A stretch of 64,000 bases of DNA, from positions 96,001-160,000 of the forward strand of contig OZ251518.1 in assembly GCA_965242965.1 (NCBI GenBank), in the 5' to 3' direction. Both the position numbers and the translations under genes were made by a program. Shown piece by piece: positions 5,121-61,771 of the stretch (its first letter is position 1; every line of letters begins with the position of its first letter). The notes under the pieces are model-generated. The model made no database searches. It was given only the letters and a program-made list of their open reading frames with translations, and had not been told where the DNA came from. This stretch comes from Candidatus Poribacteria bacterium (GTDB taxonomy: Bacteria; Poribacteria; WGA-4E; WGA-3G).

Positions 5121-7340
5121 ATGAAAAAATTGACGATTTTAACTTTGATCTTGGTGTTAACTGCCTTGGTGCAGTTGACTGCGCCGCCTGTGCAAGCAGA
5201 GGTTTCTATTCCGGATGCCGAGTTAGCAGCGGTTATCCGCGAAACCCTTGAGTTGCCGGCAGGTGCAGCAATCACGGCGGATGCGATGCGCAATTTAAGG
5301 GGACTTCATGCAAGTAGCCGTGGGATAGCAGATCTCACCGGGCTGGAGCATGCAGTCAACTTGGAGACGCTGAATCTCTACGACACCGATGTATCGGATG
5401 TCTCTGCGCTGGCAAACCTCACCAACTTGAAGACGCTGGTGCTTGACAGCACCGATGTATCGAATGTCTCTGCACTCGCAAACCTCACAAACTTGGAGTG
5501 GCTGGAGCTCGACAGCACCGATGTATCGGATGTCTCTGCACTCGCAAACCTTACAAACTTGGAGTGGCTGTGGCTCAACGACACCGATGTATCGGATGTC
5601 TCTGCACTCGCAAACCTTACAAACTTGGAGACGCTGAATCTCTACGACACCGATGTATCGGATGTCTCTGCACTCGCAAACCTTACAAACTTGGAGACGC
5701 TGAATCTCTACGACACCGATGTATCAAATGTCTCTGCACTGGCAACCCTCACAAACTTGGAGTGGCTGGAGCTCGACAGCACCGATGTATCGGATGTCTC
5801 TGCACTCGCAAACCTCACAAACTTGGAGTGGCTGGAGCTCGACAGCACCGATGTATCGGATGTCTCTGCACTCGCAAACCTTACAAACTTGGAGTGGCTG
5901 TGGCTCAACGACACCGATGTATCGGATGTCTCTGCACTCGCAAACCTCACAAACTTGAAGACGCTGAATCTCTACGACACCGATGTATCGGATGTCTCTG
6001 CACTCGCAAACCTTACAAACTTGAAGACGCTGAATCTCTACGACACCGATGTATCGGATGTCTCTGCACTCGCAAACCTTACAAACTTGGAGTGGCTGGA
6101 TCTCGACAGCACCGATGTATCGGATGTCTCTGCACTCGCAAACCTTACAAACTTGGAGTGGCTGGAGCTCGACAGCACCGATGTATCGGATGTCTCTGCA
6201 CTCGCAAACCTTACAAACTTGGAGTGGCTGTGGCTCAACGACACCGATGTATCGGATGTCTCTGCGCTGGCCAACCTCACAAACTTGGAGACGCTGTGGC
6301 TCGACGGCTGCCCGCTAAGTTACGCCTCCATCCACACGCATATTCCCGCCTTGCAGGCGATGGGGACACGGGTGGAATTTGACAATGTCGCGCATCCCGC
6401 CTTGTTGAAAGTTTCTGGGGATAGGCAAGAAGGCGCGGGTGCGACAGCATTGTCAAACCCTTTTGTCGTGGAGGCGATGGATGAGCGCGGTAAGCCGATA
6501 GTCGGCAGGGCAATCGAATTTGATATCCTTGGTGGCGGTGGGAGTCTCAGTGCTGAAACGGTGGAAACAGATGCACAAGGGCAAGCAGGAGTATCTCTCA
6601 CGCTTGGTAACTCTCAAGGCGCGAATAAAGTCAGGGCATCTTCGGAGGGGATTCGGTCTTGGGTGTTGTTTACTGCTGTTGGGACAGAAGAGGCTCCGCA
6701 ACTCGTCGCGGATGTGAATGGGGACGGTGTCGTCAACGTTCAGGATTTGGTGCTGGTTGCCGGTCAGTTCGGGAAAACGGGTGAGCACGTTGCGGATGTG
6801 AATGGCGATGGTGTCGTTAACATTCAGGATCTGGTGTTGGTTGCGGGTGCGTTTGGGGCGGGTGCGGCTGCACCGTCGGTGCGTGCGGTTTCGCGGGCGC
6901 GTCTTACAGTATCGGATGTGGAGGGATGGTTGATTGAAGCGCGGGGGTTGATTCGTTCGGGTTCGGGGGATGCATCGAGACCGGGAGGTCTCTCCTACGG
7001 GCGTGGGATTGCGGTGTTGGAGCGGCTGCTTGCCAGCCTCATGCCAACGGAGACGGTGCTGCTTGCGAATTATCCGAATCCGTTTAATCCGGAGACGTGG
7101 ATTCCGTATCAATTGTCGGAACCTGCCGAGGTGACGGTGACGATTTATGCGGCGAATGGTGCGGTGGTTCGGATGTTAGATATCGGGCATCGGCGTGCGG
7201 GGAGTTATGAGAGTCGAGGTCGTGCGGCGTATTGGGATGGCCGGAATGCGGCGGGTGAGTCTGTTGCAAGTGGTGTCTATTTCTATATGTTGTCGGCGGG
7301 AGAGTTTTCTGCGACGCGGAAGATGGTGATTCGGAAGTAA
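5121..7340 (+). CDS. Secreted internalin-like LRR protein with Big-1/Ig, dockerin and FlgD/T9SS-like C-terminal domain
   Basis: Start MKKLTILTL with AGGAG SD; 22-aa LRRs; DVNGDGVVN.QDLVLVA x2; LLANYPNPFNPETWIPYQL..YWDGRN..GE.VASGVYFY. The upstream extension in the ORF track is repeat-derived. Confidence 0.92.
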   Translation: MKKLTILTLILVLTALVQLTAPPVQAEVSIPDAELAAVIRETLELPAGAAITADAMRNLRGLHASSRGIADLTGLEHAVNLETLNLYDTDVSDVSALANLTNLKTLVLDSTDVSNVSALANLTNLEWLELDSTDVSDVSALANLTNLEWLWLNDTDVSDVSALANLTNLETLNLYDTDVSDVSALANLTNLETLNLYDTDVSNVSALATLTNLEWLELDSTDVSDVSALANLTNLEWLELDSTDVSDVSALANLTNLEWLWLNDTDVSDVSALANLTNLKTLNLYDTDVSDVSALANLTNLKTLNLYDTDVSDVSALANLTNLEWLDLDSTDVSDVSALANLTNLEWLELDSTDVSDVSALANLTNLEWLWLNDTDVSDVSALANLTNLETLWLDGCPLSYASIHTHIPALQAMGTRVEFDNVAHPALLKVSGDRQEGAGATALSNPFVVEAMDERGKPIVGRAIEFDILGGGGSLSAETVETDAQGQAGVSLTLGNSQGANKVRASSEGIRSWVLFTAVGTEEAPQLVADVNGDGVVNVQDLVLVAGQFGKTGEHVADVNGDGVVNIQDLVLVAGAFGAGAAAPSVRAVSRARLTVSDVEGWLIEARGLIRSGSGDASRPGGLSYGRGIAVLERLLASLMPTETVLLANYPNPFNPETWIPYQLSEPAEVTVTIYAANGAVVRMLDIGHRRAGSYESRGRAAYWDGRNAAGESVASGVYFYMLSAGEFSATRKMVIRK
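5358..6300 (+). repeat. 66-bp tandem repeat, 14 full units + partial (LRR coding)
   Basis: Near-identical unit aacttggag...gacaccgatgtatcggatgtctctgcactcgcaaacctcaca. Confidence 0.97.
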
Positions 7341-21125: not shown

Positions 21126-24100
21126 CTACAGCCCGGGGAGATTCCCCACAATCCGCACCGTATCCAAACTCACGGTAATCACACGTCCGATTAAATCCAC
21201 AATATAACCTGGCGCGTCGGCGCGATTCGGTTCGTTCACAATGCCACTCGCATCGTCTGCCGAAACCTGATACCGCTGCAGCACCCAGTCCAACGCCGAA
21301 TATGTCCCCAACTGATACGCAAACGCCTCCTCCGGCACCCCCTCCAACGTGAGGAAATCGTTGTAGTGGATGCACGTCTTGTCTTCGGAGAGCCGCATCT
21401 TTTCTACGCGCCAATTGAGTTGCATCCCCGGCGTTTCAACCCGCCGCAACGGATACACCGGCTGGTTTTCATAATTGACATGCAGCTCAGCTAATGCTTT
21501 CCCTGCATTAGCAAATCCCCAGAAGTCCGGGGCGAAGGGGAGATGCGGCAGATCGCGCTTGAGGTTGACACCATACCGCTCGCGGTAATCGGGATGATGC
21601 AACAGCCCATACGCATAGTGGAAAATGTCCCACTTCTCAATAGACGCGTCGCTGTAATGCGCGCGGAATTGGGACAATGCCCAATCGGTGATGTTCTCGC
21701 GCCGATTCGTGCCATCCTCATCGTAGATGTAGAACGGAAAGCATTGAGCTGTGCCTAGCATGCCATAAAACGGAATCACGTTTGTCATCAGGCAGTGGAA
21801 CGGCTTTTTGCTTCCAATGCCATTCACACAAATGACTCGGTTTTCCGTTTCCGTTTCAAGGGTAGGAAGGATAACTGACAATCTAGATGTCGTGTCAATG
21901 AGGAGCCTATCAAAGAACAGTCTCATTTTTGTATAGGGGCGGTAAAGTCCGTCCCGAATTTTGCTATCGGCGTATTCGGCGATTCGACCGCGCTTCAAAT
22001 TCGCCCGCAAACTGTCGCTCCACTTGATTTTTGTGTCATCATACGTCACAAAATCGTTGATAGCGGCACTTAAGTCTGTTCGGTGTTGCCATCGTGCCGC
22101 CTCCGCGTTGTAAAATTCTATCATCCGCAGCATGTTTTCGCCGAGTGTATCTGAATTGAAATTGCAAACCCAACGGTCGCGCCCACTCAAAATACCGTTG
22201 CTATACATACGAAATATCACACCTTCGGGTTGACTCTTACTCGCCTTCGCCGCTTGGCTCCCGAGCGGCATGAAGGTTGTGAATTCGGGACGGAGCCCTT
22301 CGGTGAGCCACGTATTATTTGCATCGACAGCGGCGCGTTTCATCGGCACGGTGGTGTAATCACCGAATTGGGTTAAGACGTTCTGCTTTTCGGCGGACTT
22401 CAGATAGTCGTCAACGTGGTAGAGATACACTTCAGCGGGTGCCGAGTCTTCTGCGAGTTTCGCCTTCTTGACGAGGAGGGTAATTCCGACGCTCACCCGC
22501 ACCTTATCGTCAAAGACGTTGCCGCCCTCTTTGCGGCGTTGCTCACCGGATGTGCGCGCGTCGCCTTTGAGATTCACGTGGTAAATCTTCGTGAAGTCCT
22601 GCGCTAGATGCTTCCGAATGCCATCGCCTGAGATAGCGTCCAAAAAATTGTTATTTGTCACGAAGGCGACGATACCTTCCTCGCCGATTCTGTCGGATGC
22701 CCAGCGGAGTGCTTTAATGCAAGCATCATAGAGCGAAGCTTTGAGTTGCGCCGCAGAGTCTTGCACGTAAGTCTCTCGCACCCGTTCATCCATCGCCTCG
22801 TGTTTCCGATTTCGGTTATTGTCGCTATCCTTCGCTTGCCCCACATTGTAAGGCGGATTGCCGATGACGATGAACATCGGCGATGCCTTCTGTTTCTCGG
22901 CGCGTTCGGTATTCTCGCGCGTCAGTAAGGGCAGCTGCCGCGATTCCGCCAGGTCAAACGTATCCACGAGGCAGATTTTATCGAACGGCACATATCGTCC
23001 GGTCGCCTCATAGAATTCGTGTTCAATATTCATGCTCGCGATGTAGTAAGGCAGGAGTAGCACCTCGTTGCAATGGAGTTCGTGGCGGTATTTATGCTCC
23101 AACGCCGTTTTGTCAATCTCGCGCATGAGTCGGACGATAAAATTGCCGGTGCCGACAAATGCATCGATGATATGCACTCCTTCATCTGACAGGGTACGCC
23201 CAAACTCGTTCTGCAGGATTTGCGCGACGCTTTTCACCATGAAGTCAACAATCGGCTGCGGGGTGTAGACGATGCCGTGTCTATCAGCGTCCTTTACCGA
23301 GAACCCTTGGAAGAACTGCTCATAGACGGTGTTGAGAAAGTGCTGTTTCTGTGAGAAATCTTGGCAGAGGCGCGCCGCATCCTCAATGGCGAGGTAAAAG
23401 TCGTTTAGTTCTGCCAGAAACTCATCGCGGCTAAATGCCTCGTCTGTCAGCACGTCAATGACGTTCTCAATTTCACGTGCGATGATATTGCGGCGCGTGA
23501 AATCGGGGTTATTGAAAACGGTGCGGAACGTGCGTTCGGTTAAAATGTGCTGGCTGAGCATCTCCTCGACTGCATCGGTGGAGAGATTCGGGTTGATGGA
23601 GGTGCGGCAGAGTTCGTAAAAGTCGGTGAAAACGGTGCTGAAACGCGGATTCGTCCGGCGCGCGTTCTGGATGATTGCCGTCATTTCACGTCCGAGTGCC
23701 GGGACCGTCTCTCGGAATTCGGCGACAGCGGCGTGCCACCTGTCAACAGCCGCAAGCGGAGCGGAAAAGAGGCGTTCCAGTGTGGTGCAGAGGTCTTTGC
23801 GTTCGGTGAGTTCCACGTCAAGCACCTTCTGTCCATTTTGATAGAGAACCCCGCGTTGCGGCGTGTAGAAAAAGATGTTAGTATCCGGATAGCCTGCGGC
23901 AAATTTGCGTTGGATTTCGCTCTCCAAATCATCGTGAATATCTTTCGCTTCAATGAAGGCGAACGGGAGTCTGTATTCGTCCAATATCGCGCCATCAATG
24001 ACGATGCGGTTTCCGGCATCCGTGCGCATTGCGTATTGCGGCACGAAGGTGGCATCGACTTTTTTCGCGCAGGCATCCAGTAGCGTTTGCAGCGGCAAAC

Positions 24101-24203
24101 TCACCGCGCCTTCGTGAGTGATGTTGTGCGTGTCAAACTGCGCCAGCGTGGCGTAGTATTCTTTGACGGGTTTGTGGTTTGGTTTGAGATTCAGTTTTCG
24201 CAT
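21126..24203 (-). CDS. Single-chain restriction-modification enzyme (nuclease + N6 MTase + type ISP-like C-terminal TRD), no helicase
   Basis: IDG..EAK, GIVYTPQPIVDF, DAFVGTGNF, GNPPY, YRPY, IFHY.YG.LH.PDYRERY..NL. Confidence 0.9.
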   Translation of the reverse strand: MRKLNLKPNHKPVKEYYATLAQFDTHNITHEGAVSLPLQTLLDACAKKVDATFVPQYAMRTDAGNRIVIDGAILDEYRLPFAFIEAKDIHDDLESEIQRKFAAGYPDTNIFFYTPQRGVLYQNGQKVLDVELTERKDLCTTLERLFSAPLAAVDRWHAAVAEFRETVPALGREMTAIIQNARRTNPRFSTVFTDFYELCRTSINPNLSTDAVEEMLSQHILTERTFRTVFNNPDFTRRNIIAREIENVIDVLTDEAFSRDEFLAELNDFYLAIEDAARLCQDFSQKQHFLNTVYEQFFQGFSVKDADRHGIVYTPQPIVDFMVKSVAQILQNEFGRTLSDEGVHIIDAFVGTGNFIVRLMREIDKTALEHKYRHELHCNEVLLLPYYIASMNIEHEFYEATGRYVPFDKICLVDTFDLAESRQLPLLTRENTERAEKQKASPMFIVIGNPPYNVGQAKDSDNNRNRKHEAMDERVRETYVQDSAAQLKASLYDACIKALRWASDRIGEEGIVAFVTNNNFLDAISGDGIRKHLAQDFTKIYHVNLKGDARTSGEQRRKEGGNVFDDKVRVSVGITLLVKKAKLAEDSAPAEVYLYHVDDYLKSAEKQNVLTQFGDYTTVPMKRAAVDANNTWLTEGLRPEFTTFMPLGSQAAKASKSQPEGVIFRMYSNGILSGRDRWVCNFNSDTLGENMLRMIEFYNAEAARWQHRTDLSAAINDFVTYDDTKIKWSDSLRANLKRGRIAEYADSKIRDGLYRPYTKMRLFFDRLLIDTTSRLSVILPTLETETENRVICVNGIGSKKPFHCLMTNVIPFYGMLGTAQCFPFYIYDEDGTNRRENITDWALSQFRAHYSDASIEKWDIFHYAYGLLHHPDYRERYGVNLKRDLPHLPFAPDFWGFANAGKALAELHVNYENQPVYPLRRVETPGMQLNWRVEKMRLSEDKTCIHYNDFLTLEGVPEEAFAYQLGTYSALDWVLQRYQVSADDASGIVNEPNRADAPGYIVDLIGRVITVSLDTVRIVGNLPGL

Positions 24204-26784: not shown

Positions 26785-28200
26785 CTACAATGTATTGACA
26801 GGTTTTGCTTTTAACCCGATACCGGTGAGGACAGAGAGCGTGGTTTCGCCTTCGCCGATAATGCCAGCCTCGCGAAATTTCTCATAGCCTTTGACAACTA
26901 CCGCCGAGGTGGGTTCAACGTAAATACCGCGCGTCGCAAGCGTTTCTAGGCCTGCCTGAATTTCTGCATCGTCAACGATGGTGAACGCGCCGTTCGTGTA
27001 ATGAATCGCGTCTAAAATCATCTGCCCGCGGACAGGCAGTTCAGCGGTAATCCCTTCGGCAAGCGTGGGGTTTGTCTGTCTCATTCTTGAAATAATCCCT
27101 TTATTCCGTAGGGCGAGCGTCTGTCCCTCATCGCGCCGCGCACTATTTCGTAGGGCGTGGGCCTGTCCCTCGCTGGGGCCTGGGGCACACGAACGCTCGC
27201 GGGGGACAGGCCCCCGCGCTACGGGGAAAGATACCGCCCGCGTAACCCGTAGGGCGTGGGCCTGTCCCTCGCCATGCTCCATATCCCGATAAGCATTGTA
27301 AATCGGACAACACGCCGCCGCCTGAACGCCCAACAACCGCGGGACGCATTCAATAACGTCCGCCTCGCGCAACTCGCGAAAACCGATGAACAGTCCCAAA
27401 TAGATGCTCCCGAAACCGACAGGACAGATAACGTGCGCTGGGACATCTCCATCCAACTGCTCAACGATTTCAAACGCCAGCGTTTTCGTGCCTTCCAAAA
27501 AGAAGGGGTGCCAATTATGCGAGGCATAGCAGACGTTTTTCGCCGCGTCCTTCACCGCCTCGGTAGTCGCCATGCGGTTGCCTTCAACGAGTTTCAACTC
27601 GGCACCGTAGGCGGCAATCTGCGCTAATTTTCCTTTTGATGTCGATGCAGGACAATAGATGGTGCATCGGATGCCGGCTCGTGCGCTGTAAGCGGCAATC
27701 GCCGCGCCTGCATTCCCCGACGAATCCTCAACCACTTCCTCAACGCCGAGTGCTTTGAGATGCGTCAGCAACACCGATGCCCCCCGGTCTTTGTAAGAAC
27801 CGGTCGGACAGAGGTAGTCAAGTTTGACGTAATGTCCCGAATCTGCCGCCACATCAATCGGTATCAAGGGTGTCATTCCTTCACCGAGGGTGACGATATC
27901 CGCATCATCGGGTATTGGTAGTGCCTCGCGATACCGCCAGAGGGATATGTCTTCAACCGCGCGCGCCAACTTTCCCGTAGGGCGAGGGCCTGTCCCTCGC
28001 CATCCTCCGGGCTCCCCAGAACTCTCCTCGGCGCACCGCGACTTCACTGTAGGGCGAGGGCCTGTCCCTCGCCATGCCCCGGATGCCCCAGAACTATTCT
28101 CTCGCCAAGTATCAAGCATTAGCGGTGAACCGCAATCGCACTGGTAGCGAAGCGGCGATATTGGGTATGTTGTGTTGCAGTGGCTGCAGAGGTATTGCAA
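26785..28200 (-). CDS. thrC: Threonine synthase-like PLP enzyme carrying two in-frame REP-derived insertions
   Basis: N-terminal Cys motif, SLWRY, LGEG.TP, PTGSYKDRG, DSSGNAG, EGTKT, PVGFG, EPTSA, TG.GLK. Confidence 0.85.
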   Translation of the reverse strand: MQYLCSHCNTTYPISPLRYQCDCGSPLMLDTWRENSSGASGAWRGTGPRPTVKSRCAEESSGEPGGWRGTGPRPTGKLARAVEDISLWRYREALPIPDDADIVTLGEGMTPLIPIDVAADSGHYVKLDYLCPTGSYKDRGASVLLTHLKALGVEEVVEDSSGNAGAAIAAYSARAGIRCTIYCPASTSKGKLAQIAAYGAELKLVEGNRMATTEAVKDAAKNVCYASHNWHPFFLEGTKTLAFEIVEQLDGDVPAHVICPVGFGSIYLGLFIGFRELREADVIECVPRLLGVQAAACCPIYNAYRDMEHGEGQAHALRVTRAVSFPVARGPVPRERSCAPGPSEGQAHALRNSARRDEGQTLALRNKGIISRMRQTNPTLAEGITAELPVRGQMILDAIHYTNGAFTIVDDAEIQAGLETLATRGIYVEPTSAVVVKGYEKFREAGIIGEGETTLSVLTGIGLKAKPVNTL

Positions 28201-28219
28201 GAGTTTCTCCTAGTTTGCA

Positions 28220-28425
28220 GCATGGCGAGGGACAGGCCCTCGCCATGCGTTTTGCTGGCAGACCCCATCACTCCTGTAGGTCAGGATCGCCTGATCCTGA
28301 CCCGTTCGGGTGCAGGCGCACCCGAACTACAGAGGTGGGCCCGATGCGCCTCCCTCGTTTTTCTATCGGTATTCGCCTTCCCACCAAGGGGGATAACTAC
28401 CGAAACGGAGTTATGAAACACCCTC
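28220..28425. mobile_element. Partial MITE (one TIR) with REP cargo, sibling of 50418-50580
   Basis: ggataactaccgaaacggagttatgaaacaccctc matches the reverse complement of the left end of the 50418 element; same internal hairpins. Confidence 0.7.
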
Positions 28426-60463: not shown

Positions 60464-61771
60464 CTACTGGGATTGAGGTGAATCGGCGAAGAGCGGCACT
60501 TCAGCTGGCAAATCACACATCCGTGCCATATCGGGGAAAATGTGCGTGACATCTTTCCTAAAAACATCGCCGCTCAGAATATCAATGATGCCGCCTTGAT
60601 GCTCCGGGTGTTCGGATAAGAACCGCGCGAAACTGAATTCCTTCGTGTAAAACGCGTAGACCAGCTTCCGAAACGCCTCCATACCCTTGACGAACGTCGG
60701 CCCGAAGCTCCCCAGTTGCGCCGCGGAAAAATCGTTCTTTTGGAACGCTTCCACGATGACATCGGCGGCCATTTCTCCTGATTTGAGCGCAAGAAAGAGG
60801 CCCGTTGAGTAAACCGGGTCCAGGAAACCGAACGCGTCACCTACTAATACCCAGCCGTTGCCAGCGATGCGGTTTGCGCGATACGAAAAGTCCTTCGTCG
60901 TCTTAATTGGGAACAGTTGTTTCGCGCCGGCGAGTCGCTTCTTCAAGGCGCGGCATTTTGATAATTCTTCGTCAAAGATTCGCTGCGCGTCCAATTTACC
61001 GTTGGCATCCCGGCGATTTTGGAGGAGATAGTCTAGTTCGCCGACAACGCCAATGCTGGTGCGATTGTAGGGTAACGGGATAGACCAGAACCACGAATCC
61101 TTGGTTTCGGTGTGCATGATGAGCGTCGCGCCTTCGTCAATGCCTTCGTCTCGGTGCGCGCCTTCAAAATGCGTGAAAAGCGATGCCATTTTCAGGTTCG
61201 GTTCTGTCGCGTTCATGTCCAGTTGCCTGCCGATGAGGGAACTCTGTCCGGTGGAATCGACAATGACGGTGGAATGAATAGTCTCCGTTTCCGTAGCGCG
61301 AGGGCCTGTCCCTCGCGTTCCAGAGTTTTGAACCACAACCCCCACGGCCGCGCCATCCTCAAAAAGCACCTTGCGCACACGGGTGCCGCGGCGGACTTCT
61401 ACGCCTTTTTCGGCTGCATTTTCCAGAAGCCCCTGGTCAAATTCACTCCGCAGCACCTGCCATGTGACAGCACTTTCGTGCGGGTTCGTCTGAAAGAAAT
61501 AGAACGGTTTGGCGGCTTTCCCGGAACGTGAATAGAACTGCACGCTGAATTTCTGTGGGAAGTGACTTTTCTGGAGTTTTTCAAGCATGCCGAGCCGCTT
61601 GAACGTCCAATAAGTCGCAGGAATCAGGGATTCGCCGATTTTAAAACTGGGTTCGGTTTCGCGTTCAAGGAGCAGCACTCGGTATCCGTGTTGTGCTGTG
61701 AGTGCGGCGACGGTGCTTCCGGCGGGCCCGCCGCCGATAACAGTGATGTCGTAATGTTTCGGTTTTTGCAT
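60464..61771 (-). CDS. Flavin-dependent halogenase-like oxidoreductase with in-frame REP insertion
   Basis: GGGPAG, IGESL, F.QK, WQV.RSEFD, WFWSIP, GDAFGFLDP.YSTG. Confidence 0.85.
   Translation of the reverse strand: MQKPKHYDITVIGGGPAGSTVAALTAQHGYRVLLLERETEPSFKIGESLIPATYWTFKRLGMLEKLQKSHFPQKFSVQFYSRSGKAAKPFYFFQTNPHESAVTWQVLRSEFDQGLLENAAEKGVEVRRGTRVRKVLFEDGAAVGVVVQNSGTRGTGPRATETETIHSTVIVDSTGQSSLIGRQLDMNATEPNLKMASLFTHFEGAHRDEGIDEGATLIMHTETKDSWFWSIPLPYNRTSIGVVGELDYLLQNRRDANGKLDAQRIFDEELSKCRALKKRLAGAKQLFPIKTTKDFSYRANRIAGNGWVLVGDAFGFLDPVYSTGLFLALKSGEMAADVIVEAFQKNDFSAAQLGSFGPTFVKGMEAFRKLVYAFYTKEFSFARFLSEHPEHQGGIIDILSGDVFRKDVTHIFPDMARMCDLPAEVPLFADSPQSQ

Follow-up and report, generated by a model that had tools for sequence, protein, structure and literature searches.

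The locus examined here raises the question of whether a conserved enzyme gene can take up copies of a hairpin repeat, have them read in frame as extra protein, and remain under selection as an enzyme gene. It lies in a 64,000-nucleotide stretch of DNA (the window) from a sponge-symbiont genome that is Poribacteria-like (G000). A first-pass annotation of the window had reported GTAG hairpins inside a threonine synthase gene, two of them 72 bp apart and read as WRGTGPRPT and four others at about 27106–27276 read as GEGQAHALR, VARGPVPR and EGQTLALR, in an open frame with intact catalytic motifs. All of this was borne out. A profile scan found six REP copies of one family (family A) in the ORF, so that the extra segments are REP-derived: the pair, with WRGTGPRPT at aa 43 and 67, lies at the expected distance, and the four others span 27108–27273. 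The ORF contains no internal stop, PALP was the sole domain in a Pfam scan, and the motifs PTGSYKDRG (aa 132), SSGN (aa 160), PVGFG (aa 260) and EPTSA (aa 429) were all located; these motifs and K137 are invariant in the alignment. Each of the six copies starts with GTAG when read along the REP strand and fits the hairpin of the family, and the 25-bp hairpin is the unit within periods of 42–99 bp. The copy in insert 2 that lies on the opposite strand is inverted relative to both neighbours, forming inverted dimers. Of the two insert sites, neither showed a target-site duplication on inspection by eye. The features of the locus are collected in Table 1.

Table 1. The ThrC-like gene, its motifs, its REP-derived inserts and the neighbouring intergenic REPs (positions in the window)
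Feature	Position	Strand	Basis
ThrC-like fold-type II PLP enzyme, 471 aa, TTG start	26785..28200	-	ORF call, Pfam, profile scan, structure matches
AGGAG ribosome-binding-like site, 6 nt 5' of TTG	28207..28211	-	sequence
N-terminal CxxC...CxC motif (C5, C8, C21, C23)	28132..28188	-	alignment
PTGSYKDRG motif with K137, assigned as PLP lysine from homology with solved threonine synthases	27781..27807	-	alignment
Insert 1 region, aa ~32–79: two 72-bp (24-codon) units, net +40/41 aa	27964..28107	-	repeats, orthologue lengths, model
Family-A GTAG REP, 0/25 mismatches to nearest consensus, antisense reading WRGTGPRPT (insert 1)	28049..28073	+	profile scan
Family-A GTAG REP, 0/25 mismatches to nearest consensus, antisense reading WRGTGPRPT (insert 1)	27977..28001	+	profile scan
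Insert 2, aa ~308–366: four REP copies, net +59 aa	27103..27279	-	orthologue lengths, model
Family-A REP, 1/25 mismatch to nearest consensus, read as GEGQAHALR (aa 310; insert 2)	27249..27273	+	profile scan
Family-A REP, 0/25 mismatches, opposite orientation, read as VARGPVPR (aa 327; insert 2)	27198..27222	-	profile scan
Family-A REP, 2/25 mismatches, read as EGQAHALR (insert 2)	27150..27174	+	profile scan
Family-A REP, 4/25 mismatches, read as EGQTLALR (aa 358; insert 2)	27108..27132	+	profile scan
Intergenic family-A REP just 5' of the ThrC-like gene	28224-28248		profile scan
Intergenic family-B inverted pair 5' of the ThrC-like gene	28276-28300, 28306-28330		profile scan

The four cysteines of the N-terminal motif were invariant in 58/58 aligned sequences and may bind zinc. 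Since this motif lies before insert 1, insert 1 is internal to the protein. The database start of most close alleles (P0001–P0029) is an internal ATG at residue 28, by which the invariant cysteine motif is lost, and a protein-collection look-up gave an exact match for neither the 471-aa nor the 444-aa form. In practice, the REP inserts thus inflate protein lengths and mislead gene callers.

The repeats themselves are part of a very large family expansion. A generic scan of the G000 chromosome gave 6,208 near-perfect GTAG hairpins, and the profile scan gave 9,294 REPs in five families, 4,811 of them family A (both strands); the family-A profile had 0 hits on a shuffled chromosome strand, and shuffled controls gave 0–2 per family. 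In 600 kb, GTAG hairpins numbered 261, against 1–39 for control tags. A GTAG-tagged REP has GTAG at one end of a 20–40 bp palindrome, and the repeats of G000 share with this class the GTAG tag with a hairpin, a high and mostly intergenic copy number, and inverted dimers. When the family-A pattern was counted in 61 genomes, G000 had 4,245 copies, its congeners G001 and G002 had 1,006 and 572, G004 had 2, and the other 57 had 0, showing that this expansion is limited to one genus; GTAG families of other kinds occur in other Poribacteria. By Pfam Y1_Tnp and tblastn, one RAYT-like gene was found in G000 (C1:3147502-3147960, L119), flanked by 19 family-B REPs, and the same searches found no second RAYT in this assembly (94.7% complete). 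Among 30 RAYT-like loci from 21 genomes, none had family-A flanks, the hairpins there being of other families or missing. G000 resembles a REP-RAYT (REPtron/REPIN) system in its GTAG hairpins, inverted dimers and single RAYT-like gene within REP arrays, but differs in that this gene is flanked by family B and not by family A. An IS200/IS605-like tnpA with two TGA stops was also seen (G000:C1:3124159-3125744, L118); the adjoining 409-aa ORF looks TnpB-like by eye.

Regarding the enzyme, the first-pass annotation had called it a housekeeping-type ThrC, and this was not borne out. Its score against TIGR00260, the thrC equivalog, was 152.6 bits, below the cut-off of 167.1, as was that of the insert-free orthologue L003 (156.1 bits), whereas three other G000 genes passed (173.6, 273.3 and 209.9 bits); one of these paralogues, C1:5373906-5375228, retains ASTG and NSINSLR segments. 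The top profile scores of the protein were to PRK08329, PRK06450 and PRK08197, and it fell below every NCBIfam cut-off shown. In structure searches (Foldseek, VIA) the best matches of its model were threonine synthases, with Z values of 33–40 for solved structures (e.g. 2d1f: Z 33.7, rmsd 2.3, 305 aligned). With ThrC (TIGR00260) and PRK06450/PRK08329 it shares the fold, the PLP lysine motif, the glycine loop and the EPTSA motif. It differs in having EDSSGN and HNWHPFFLEGTKT, where solved threonine synthases have CASTGN and NSVNPVRIEGQKT or NSVNPYRIEGQKT; their NSxNPxR segment, which we take to have a role in substrate phosphate binding, is absent, and HNWHPFF stands in its place. On profile scores and motifs, we regard the gene as a conserved ThrC-like paralogue, which may or may not share the substrate of ThrC, and not as a demonstrated housekeeping thrC.

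The inserts were delimited by comparison with 80 related loci (78 titled Poribacteria), 79 of which had a parsable ORF and one of which had none. Site 1, the linker that follows the N-terminal cysteine motif, measures 62 aa here and 21–22 aa in 68/79 orthologues; seven others have 23–34 aa and four were not parsed. Site 2, the loop after CCPI, is 78 aa long here and 19 aa in 77/79 orthologues, the exceptions being a congener (L001, 47 aa) and one that was not parsed. The roughly 100 additional residues previously proposed are therefore real in comparison with most orthologues, and the empty sites are those of other genera. Within the genus, each of the three genomes has both sites filled, in frame but to different lengths: 31 and 47 aa in G001 (+9/10 and +28 aa), and 72 and 33 aa in G002 (+50/51 and +14 aa). 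The closest database proteins (the best 31 of 280 matches, one being the window's own protein) fell into eight length classes at site 1 and into 11 at site 2. Counted by eye, the close alleles have 1–3 units of about 24 aa at site 1 and 1–5 of about 14 aa at site 2, indicating in-frame expansion and contraction; the loops grow and shrink in frame between strains. This series was drawn from called ORFs of 259–825 aa, in which broken alleles would be missed. In one protein, P0030, the inserts held no recognisable family-A peptides.

The ThrC-like gene is not a special case. Our own gene caller gave 4,120 genes covering 80% of the chromosome, yet 8,647 of the 9,294 REPs lay outside called genes and 494 lay wholly within them. 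After restriction to genes with coding-like sequence on both sides of the repeat, 280 internal REPs remained in 147 genes, a list drawn from open frames; a strong copy is present in 100 of these genes and at least two separate sites in 21, and the ThrC-like gene with its six copies is among the most heavily decorated. Twenty hand-picked REP-bearing genes were scanned, and 17 passed a named equivalog or subfamily cut-off (including ClpB, LigA, IleRS, LeuRS, DapF, CarB, both UvrA, MurD, Tgt, Alr, QueG, FolC, HisC, ThiO and RsmB); HemE and a PcrA-like helicase were below the cut-off, and one gene had no hit at 1e-60. In all eight conserved genes checked against orthologues, the outgroup sites had less or no extra sequence, and the congener inserts differed in length or sequence. 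Five genomes were searched for these eight, HisC being found in two and LeuRS in four. G004 shares inserts in DapF and LigA, in decayed form, and a longer, unrelated loop is present at another place in the MurD of the outgroups.

Several observations were made on these orthologues besides. In the murD of G004 (L156), which belongs to another genus, a different GTAG REP family is present in two in-frame copies read as GTRSVPAT, which shows that REPs have entered genes in frame outside the genus of G000 too. The hisC of G002 (L168) has, in addition to the shared site, a second and independent family-A insert of about 24 aa at a site without a G000 counterpart. A partial murD match (residues 1–218) at G001:C36:3144-3797 (L159), just upstream of the full gene, is either a duplication or an assembly issue.

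The reading frame of these insertions was strongly biased. Between neighbouring copies in the same orientation, the spacing was a multiple of three in 78/80 intragenic pairs as opposed to 482/1,301 pairs elsewhere, indicating that the arrays grew by steps each of which was in frame. In 46 of 2,877 REP clusters a single homologue matched both flanks, and in 44 of these the frame was open across the cluster, where neutrality would leave at most one third open (binomial p ~5e-19); this test needs coding-like flanks, so that decayed pseudogenes are missed. One of the two shifted clusters proved to be an ordinary two-gene junction, with a fused paralogue next door. The other was a truncated restriction-modification paralogue (G000:C1:4435286-4437511) that goes out of frame at the REP cluster 4437218-4437296, and it was the one clear broken case found. 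Genome-wide, REP insertions in genes thus persist almost only when the frame is open, as the claim of surviving frame-preserving insertions had it; this was shown statistically.

Selection on the ThrC-like gene itself was evaluated by Nei-Gojobori counting over 337 core codons. Core dN/dS was 0.10 against G002 and 0.15 against G001, and 0.08–0.14 in insert-free pairs (n = 5), with dS of 0.35–0.6 across the genus. A dN/dS near 1, named beforehand as evidence against retention, was thus not seen, and the core is by this measure under purifying selection like its insert-free orthologues. The inserts behaved differently. Among four alleles of equal length, compared pairwise, the inserts differed at 55/288 and 65/354 positions (18–19%) and the core at 64/1,986 (3.2%), indicating that the loops are much less constrained than the core; at the protein level they drift about six times as fast. 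The earlier statement that the insertions had been retained by selection is therefore supported in the sense that frameshifts are purged, and not in the sense of a benefit. When the inserts were mapped on an AlphaFold2 model (58-sequence alignment, pTM 0.74), both fell in low-confidence loops, pLDDT being below 50 at aa 32–79, 311–366, 373–382 and 463–471. Their GRAVY values were −1.19 and −0.85 versus 0.19. The inserts are thus predicted to be disordered surface loops, which their composition supports; the low pLDDT is partly expected from thin alignment columns.

Taken together, these results make it quite probable that the inserts are tolerated, translated and near-neutral REP insertions, which have passed a filter for frame and loop position and now form loops of variable length. 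One REP copy would have landed at each site in the ancestor of the genus, carried perhaps by a RAYT transposase, by recombination or by another route. Such insertions persist almost only when the frame is open, and in the ThrC-like enzyme they lie in two loops outside the core. As the allele series shows, the REP with some flanking bases has been tandemly duplicated and deleted, as a 24-codon unit at site 1 and one of about 14 codons at site 2, possibly by slippage or unequal recombination, each surviving length step being a multiple of three. The inserts would be translated, because the frame constraint would make no sense otherwise, and the protein would carry some 100 additional residues, hydrophilic and disordered, and keep its PLP-dependent activity with perhaps slightly changed kinetics, while the loop sequence itself would drift. 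Some observations fit the near-neutral reading less well. One site-1 copy is perfect in both G000 and G002 despite a dS of 0.6, which neutral drift alone, starting from a single old insertion, would not lead one to expect; some constraint or homogenisation is required, and the thousands of other REP copies could have homogenised it. The dN/dS of the G001 branch is higher than the others (0.215, versus 0.096 for G000 and 0.105 for G002). Finally, the only RAYT found in G000 is flanked by family B and not by family A.

The first alternative is that the inserts are functional, the number of units tuning the enzyme as in a contingency-locus-like loop, or the hairpins acting in mRNA or DNA, through pausing, stability or protein binding, and being kept for this. 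Both sites are filled in the three genomes of the genus and, where covered, in the best 31 of the 280 matches, in spite of the divergence in dS, and some copies remain perfect. Site 2 lies immediately before the conserved TLAEG segment, and insert 1 as RNA folds somewhat better than its shuffles (z −1.9; 6/200). On the other hand, insert 2 showed no such advantage over its shuffles (z −0.6), the REP copies have decayed in G001 and G002, and the faster drift of the inserts also argues against a function. The units vary freely in number, orientation and reading frame, five of the six family-A frames being used across genes and only the TAG-holding frame being unused, and the genes that bear REPs are functionally unrelated to one another. 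Function in this sense is accordingly unlikely. A wider form of it, in which the REP arrays of this genus make in-frame accordion loops in about 150 proteins, among them essential enzymes, with a unit number that differs between strains and is used as an enzyme dial or at least exposed to selection as one, has a small chance of being right; if true, it would amount to a contingency-locus system assembled out of selfish DNA, in which the birth of protein repeats from a mobile element could be watched in progress.

It could also be argued that the gene, as a dispensable paralogue, is under relaxed selection and collects repeats on its way to loss, since it is one of four ThrC-like genes, the only one of them below the TIGR00260 cut-off, and heavily decorated, and its dN/dS is raised on the G001 branch. 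This is improbable: the low dN/dS on the G000 branch largely refutes it, the catalytic motifs are invariant, a strong match to the protein (E < 1e-80) is present in 59/61 genomes, and LigA, LeuRS, IleRS, MurD and DapF, which are normally essential, carry similar inserts.

Still less probable, to the point of being hardly credible, is removal of the repeats before or after translation, by RNA excision or protein splicing, to give a mature enzyme of normal length. In its favour, the elements as such are hairpins, and a long stem can arise from the inverted dimer of insert 2, but RNA excision would free the frame, which the spacings and clusters described above show to be kept, and the Pfam scan gave PALP and no splicing domain. 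Known inteins are much longer than these inserts.

That the repeats were mis-joined into the gene during assembly, for which their great abundance and the absence of a short-read contig covering the whole stretch might speak, is practically ruled out, since contigs from different studies bridge the enzyme-insert junctions and inserts occur at the same places in two congeners and in 30 other database proteins. Contigs from four runs of four studies (X1, X2, X5 and X10, the source sample being perhaps X1 or X2) were compared with the locus. The 16 runs listed for the locus included none of RNA, which does not bear on its expression. Three of the four junctions were bridged with at least 31 letters on each side, namely ~27103 (X1, X5, X10), 27964 (X2, X10) and 28107 (X2, X5, X10), and the fourth, 27279, was bridged at the limit (X5). 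Contigs of three runs had one-base deletions at 27174, and one X10 contig had five unplaced gap letters. The deletions may come from other REP loci, thousands of which map there; a frameshifted allele of the ThrC-like gene is also conceivable.

In-frame insertion of REPs is known from other bacteria; the present case stands out by its unusual frequency and resolution. Intragenic GTAG REPs were described by Di Nocera, De Gregorio and Rocco in 2013 (PMC3733652), notably in Opitutus terrae and Thauera. As far as the relevant passages of that paper go, its REPs and those of G000 have in common that hairpins lie wholly inside ORFs, as singles, dimers and groups, and that some ORFs are hit twice; its clusters encode 43–82 aa of G/P/R/A-rich peptides similar to those here, and both uvrA genes are interrupted by REPs in O. 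terrae as in G000. The REP families and the phylum are different, and the intragenic table of its supplement S3, so far as it was available, had no Poribacteria row and no threonine synthase. O. terrae, the top GTAG case in the material from PMC3733652, has by our own count 70 rows in 62 ORFs, termini included, compared with 280 internal copies in 147 called genes in G000, the two counts differing in method. Neither dN/dS values nor a series of alleles nor a tally of broken against intact genes is given in the same passages. In G000, the two UvrA genes (L126, L127; G000:C1:2718889-2724834, 3066075-3069158) carry four-copy family-C arrays in frame.

The precedent cited in the first-pass annotation, the RPEs of Rickettsia, applies in one respect. 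According to the parts of PMC2229807 drawn on here, which summarises Ogata 2000 and Abergel 2006, these are 105–146 bp elements with terminal inverted repeats, and like the REPs of G000 they are palindromic and have become part of conserved enzymes by in-frame fusion. However, the unit here is a 25-bp GTAG hairpin that was tandemly amplified after insertion, which falls outside the RPE definition, and the intragenic GTAG REPs are the nearer precedent. The short repeats of R. conorii are CGTC-tagged, according to PMC3733652, and further in-frame repeat fusions are catalogued in PMC3184786, likewise drawn on in part. In the consulted text of PMC2229807, an RPE-bearing guanylate kinase was translated and active with a changed substrate affinity, the insertion was read as neutral or slightly harmful, and a benefit of such inserts had not been shown as of 2007. 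No literature on REPs in Poribacteria was found, as judged by titles and the beginnings of abstracts in a coverage outside which most subscription journals lie.

What goes beyond these precedents is the scale and the allele series of accordion-like loops in a conserved enzyme. A natural series of 0–3 and 0–5 repeat units in one enzyme can be used to test the tolerance of repeat-derived peptide, and also to test whether such inserts ever become useful. The map of about 150 tolerated sites amounts to a natural insertion scan of conserved proteins.

Three other genes of the window touch on the same subject. The gene at 5121-7340 (+) has one internal in-frame family-C REP at codon 617, and that at 60464-61771 (-) has one internal in-frame family-A REP at codon 151. 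The gene at 21126-24203 (-) is a Type ISP restriction-modification gene; similar proteins make up a family of some 27 paralogues in G000, and in at least seven of these a REP array occupies about the same position (aa 580–640).
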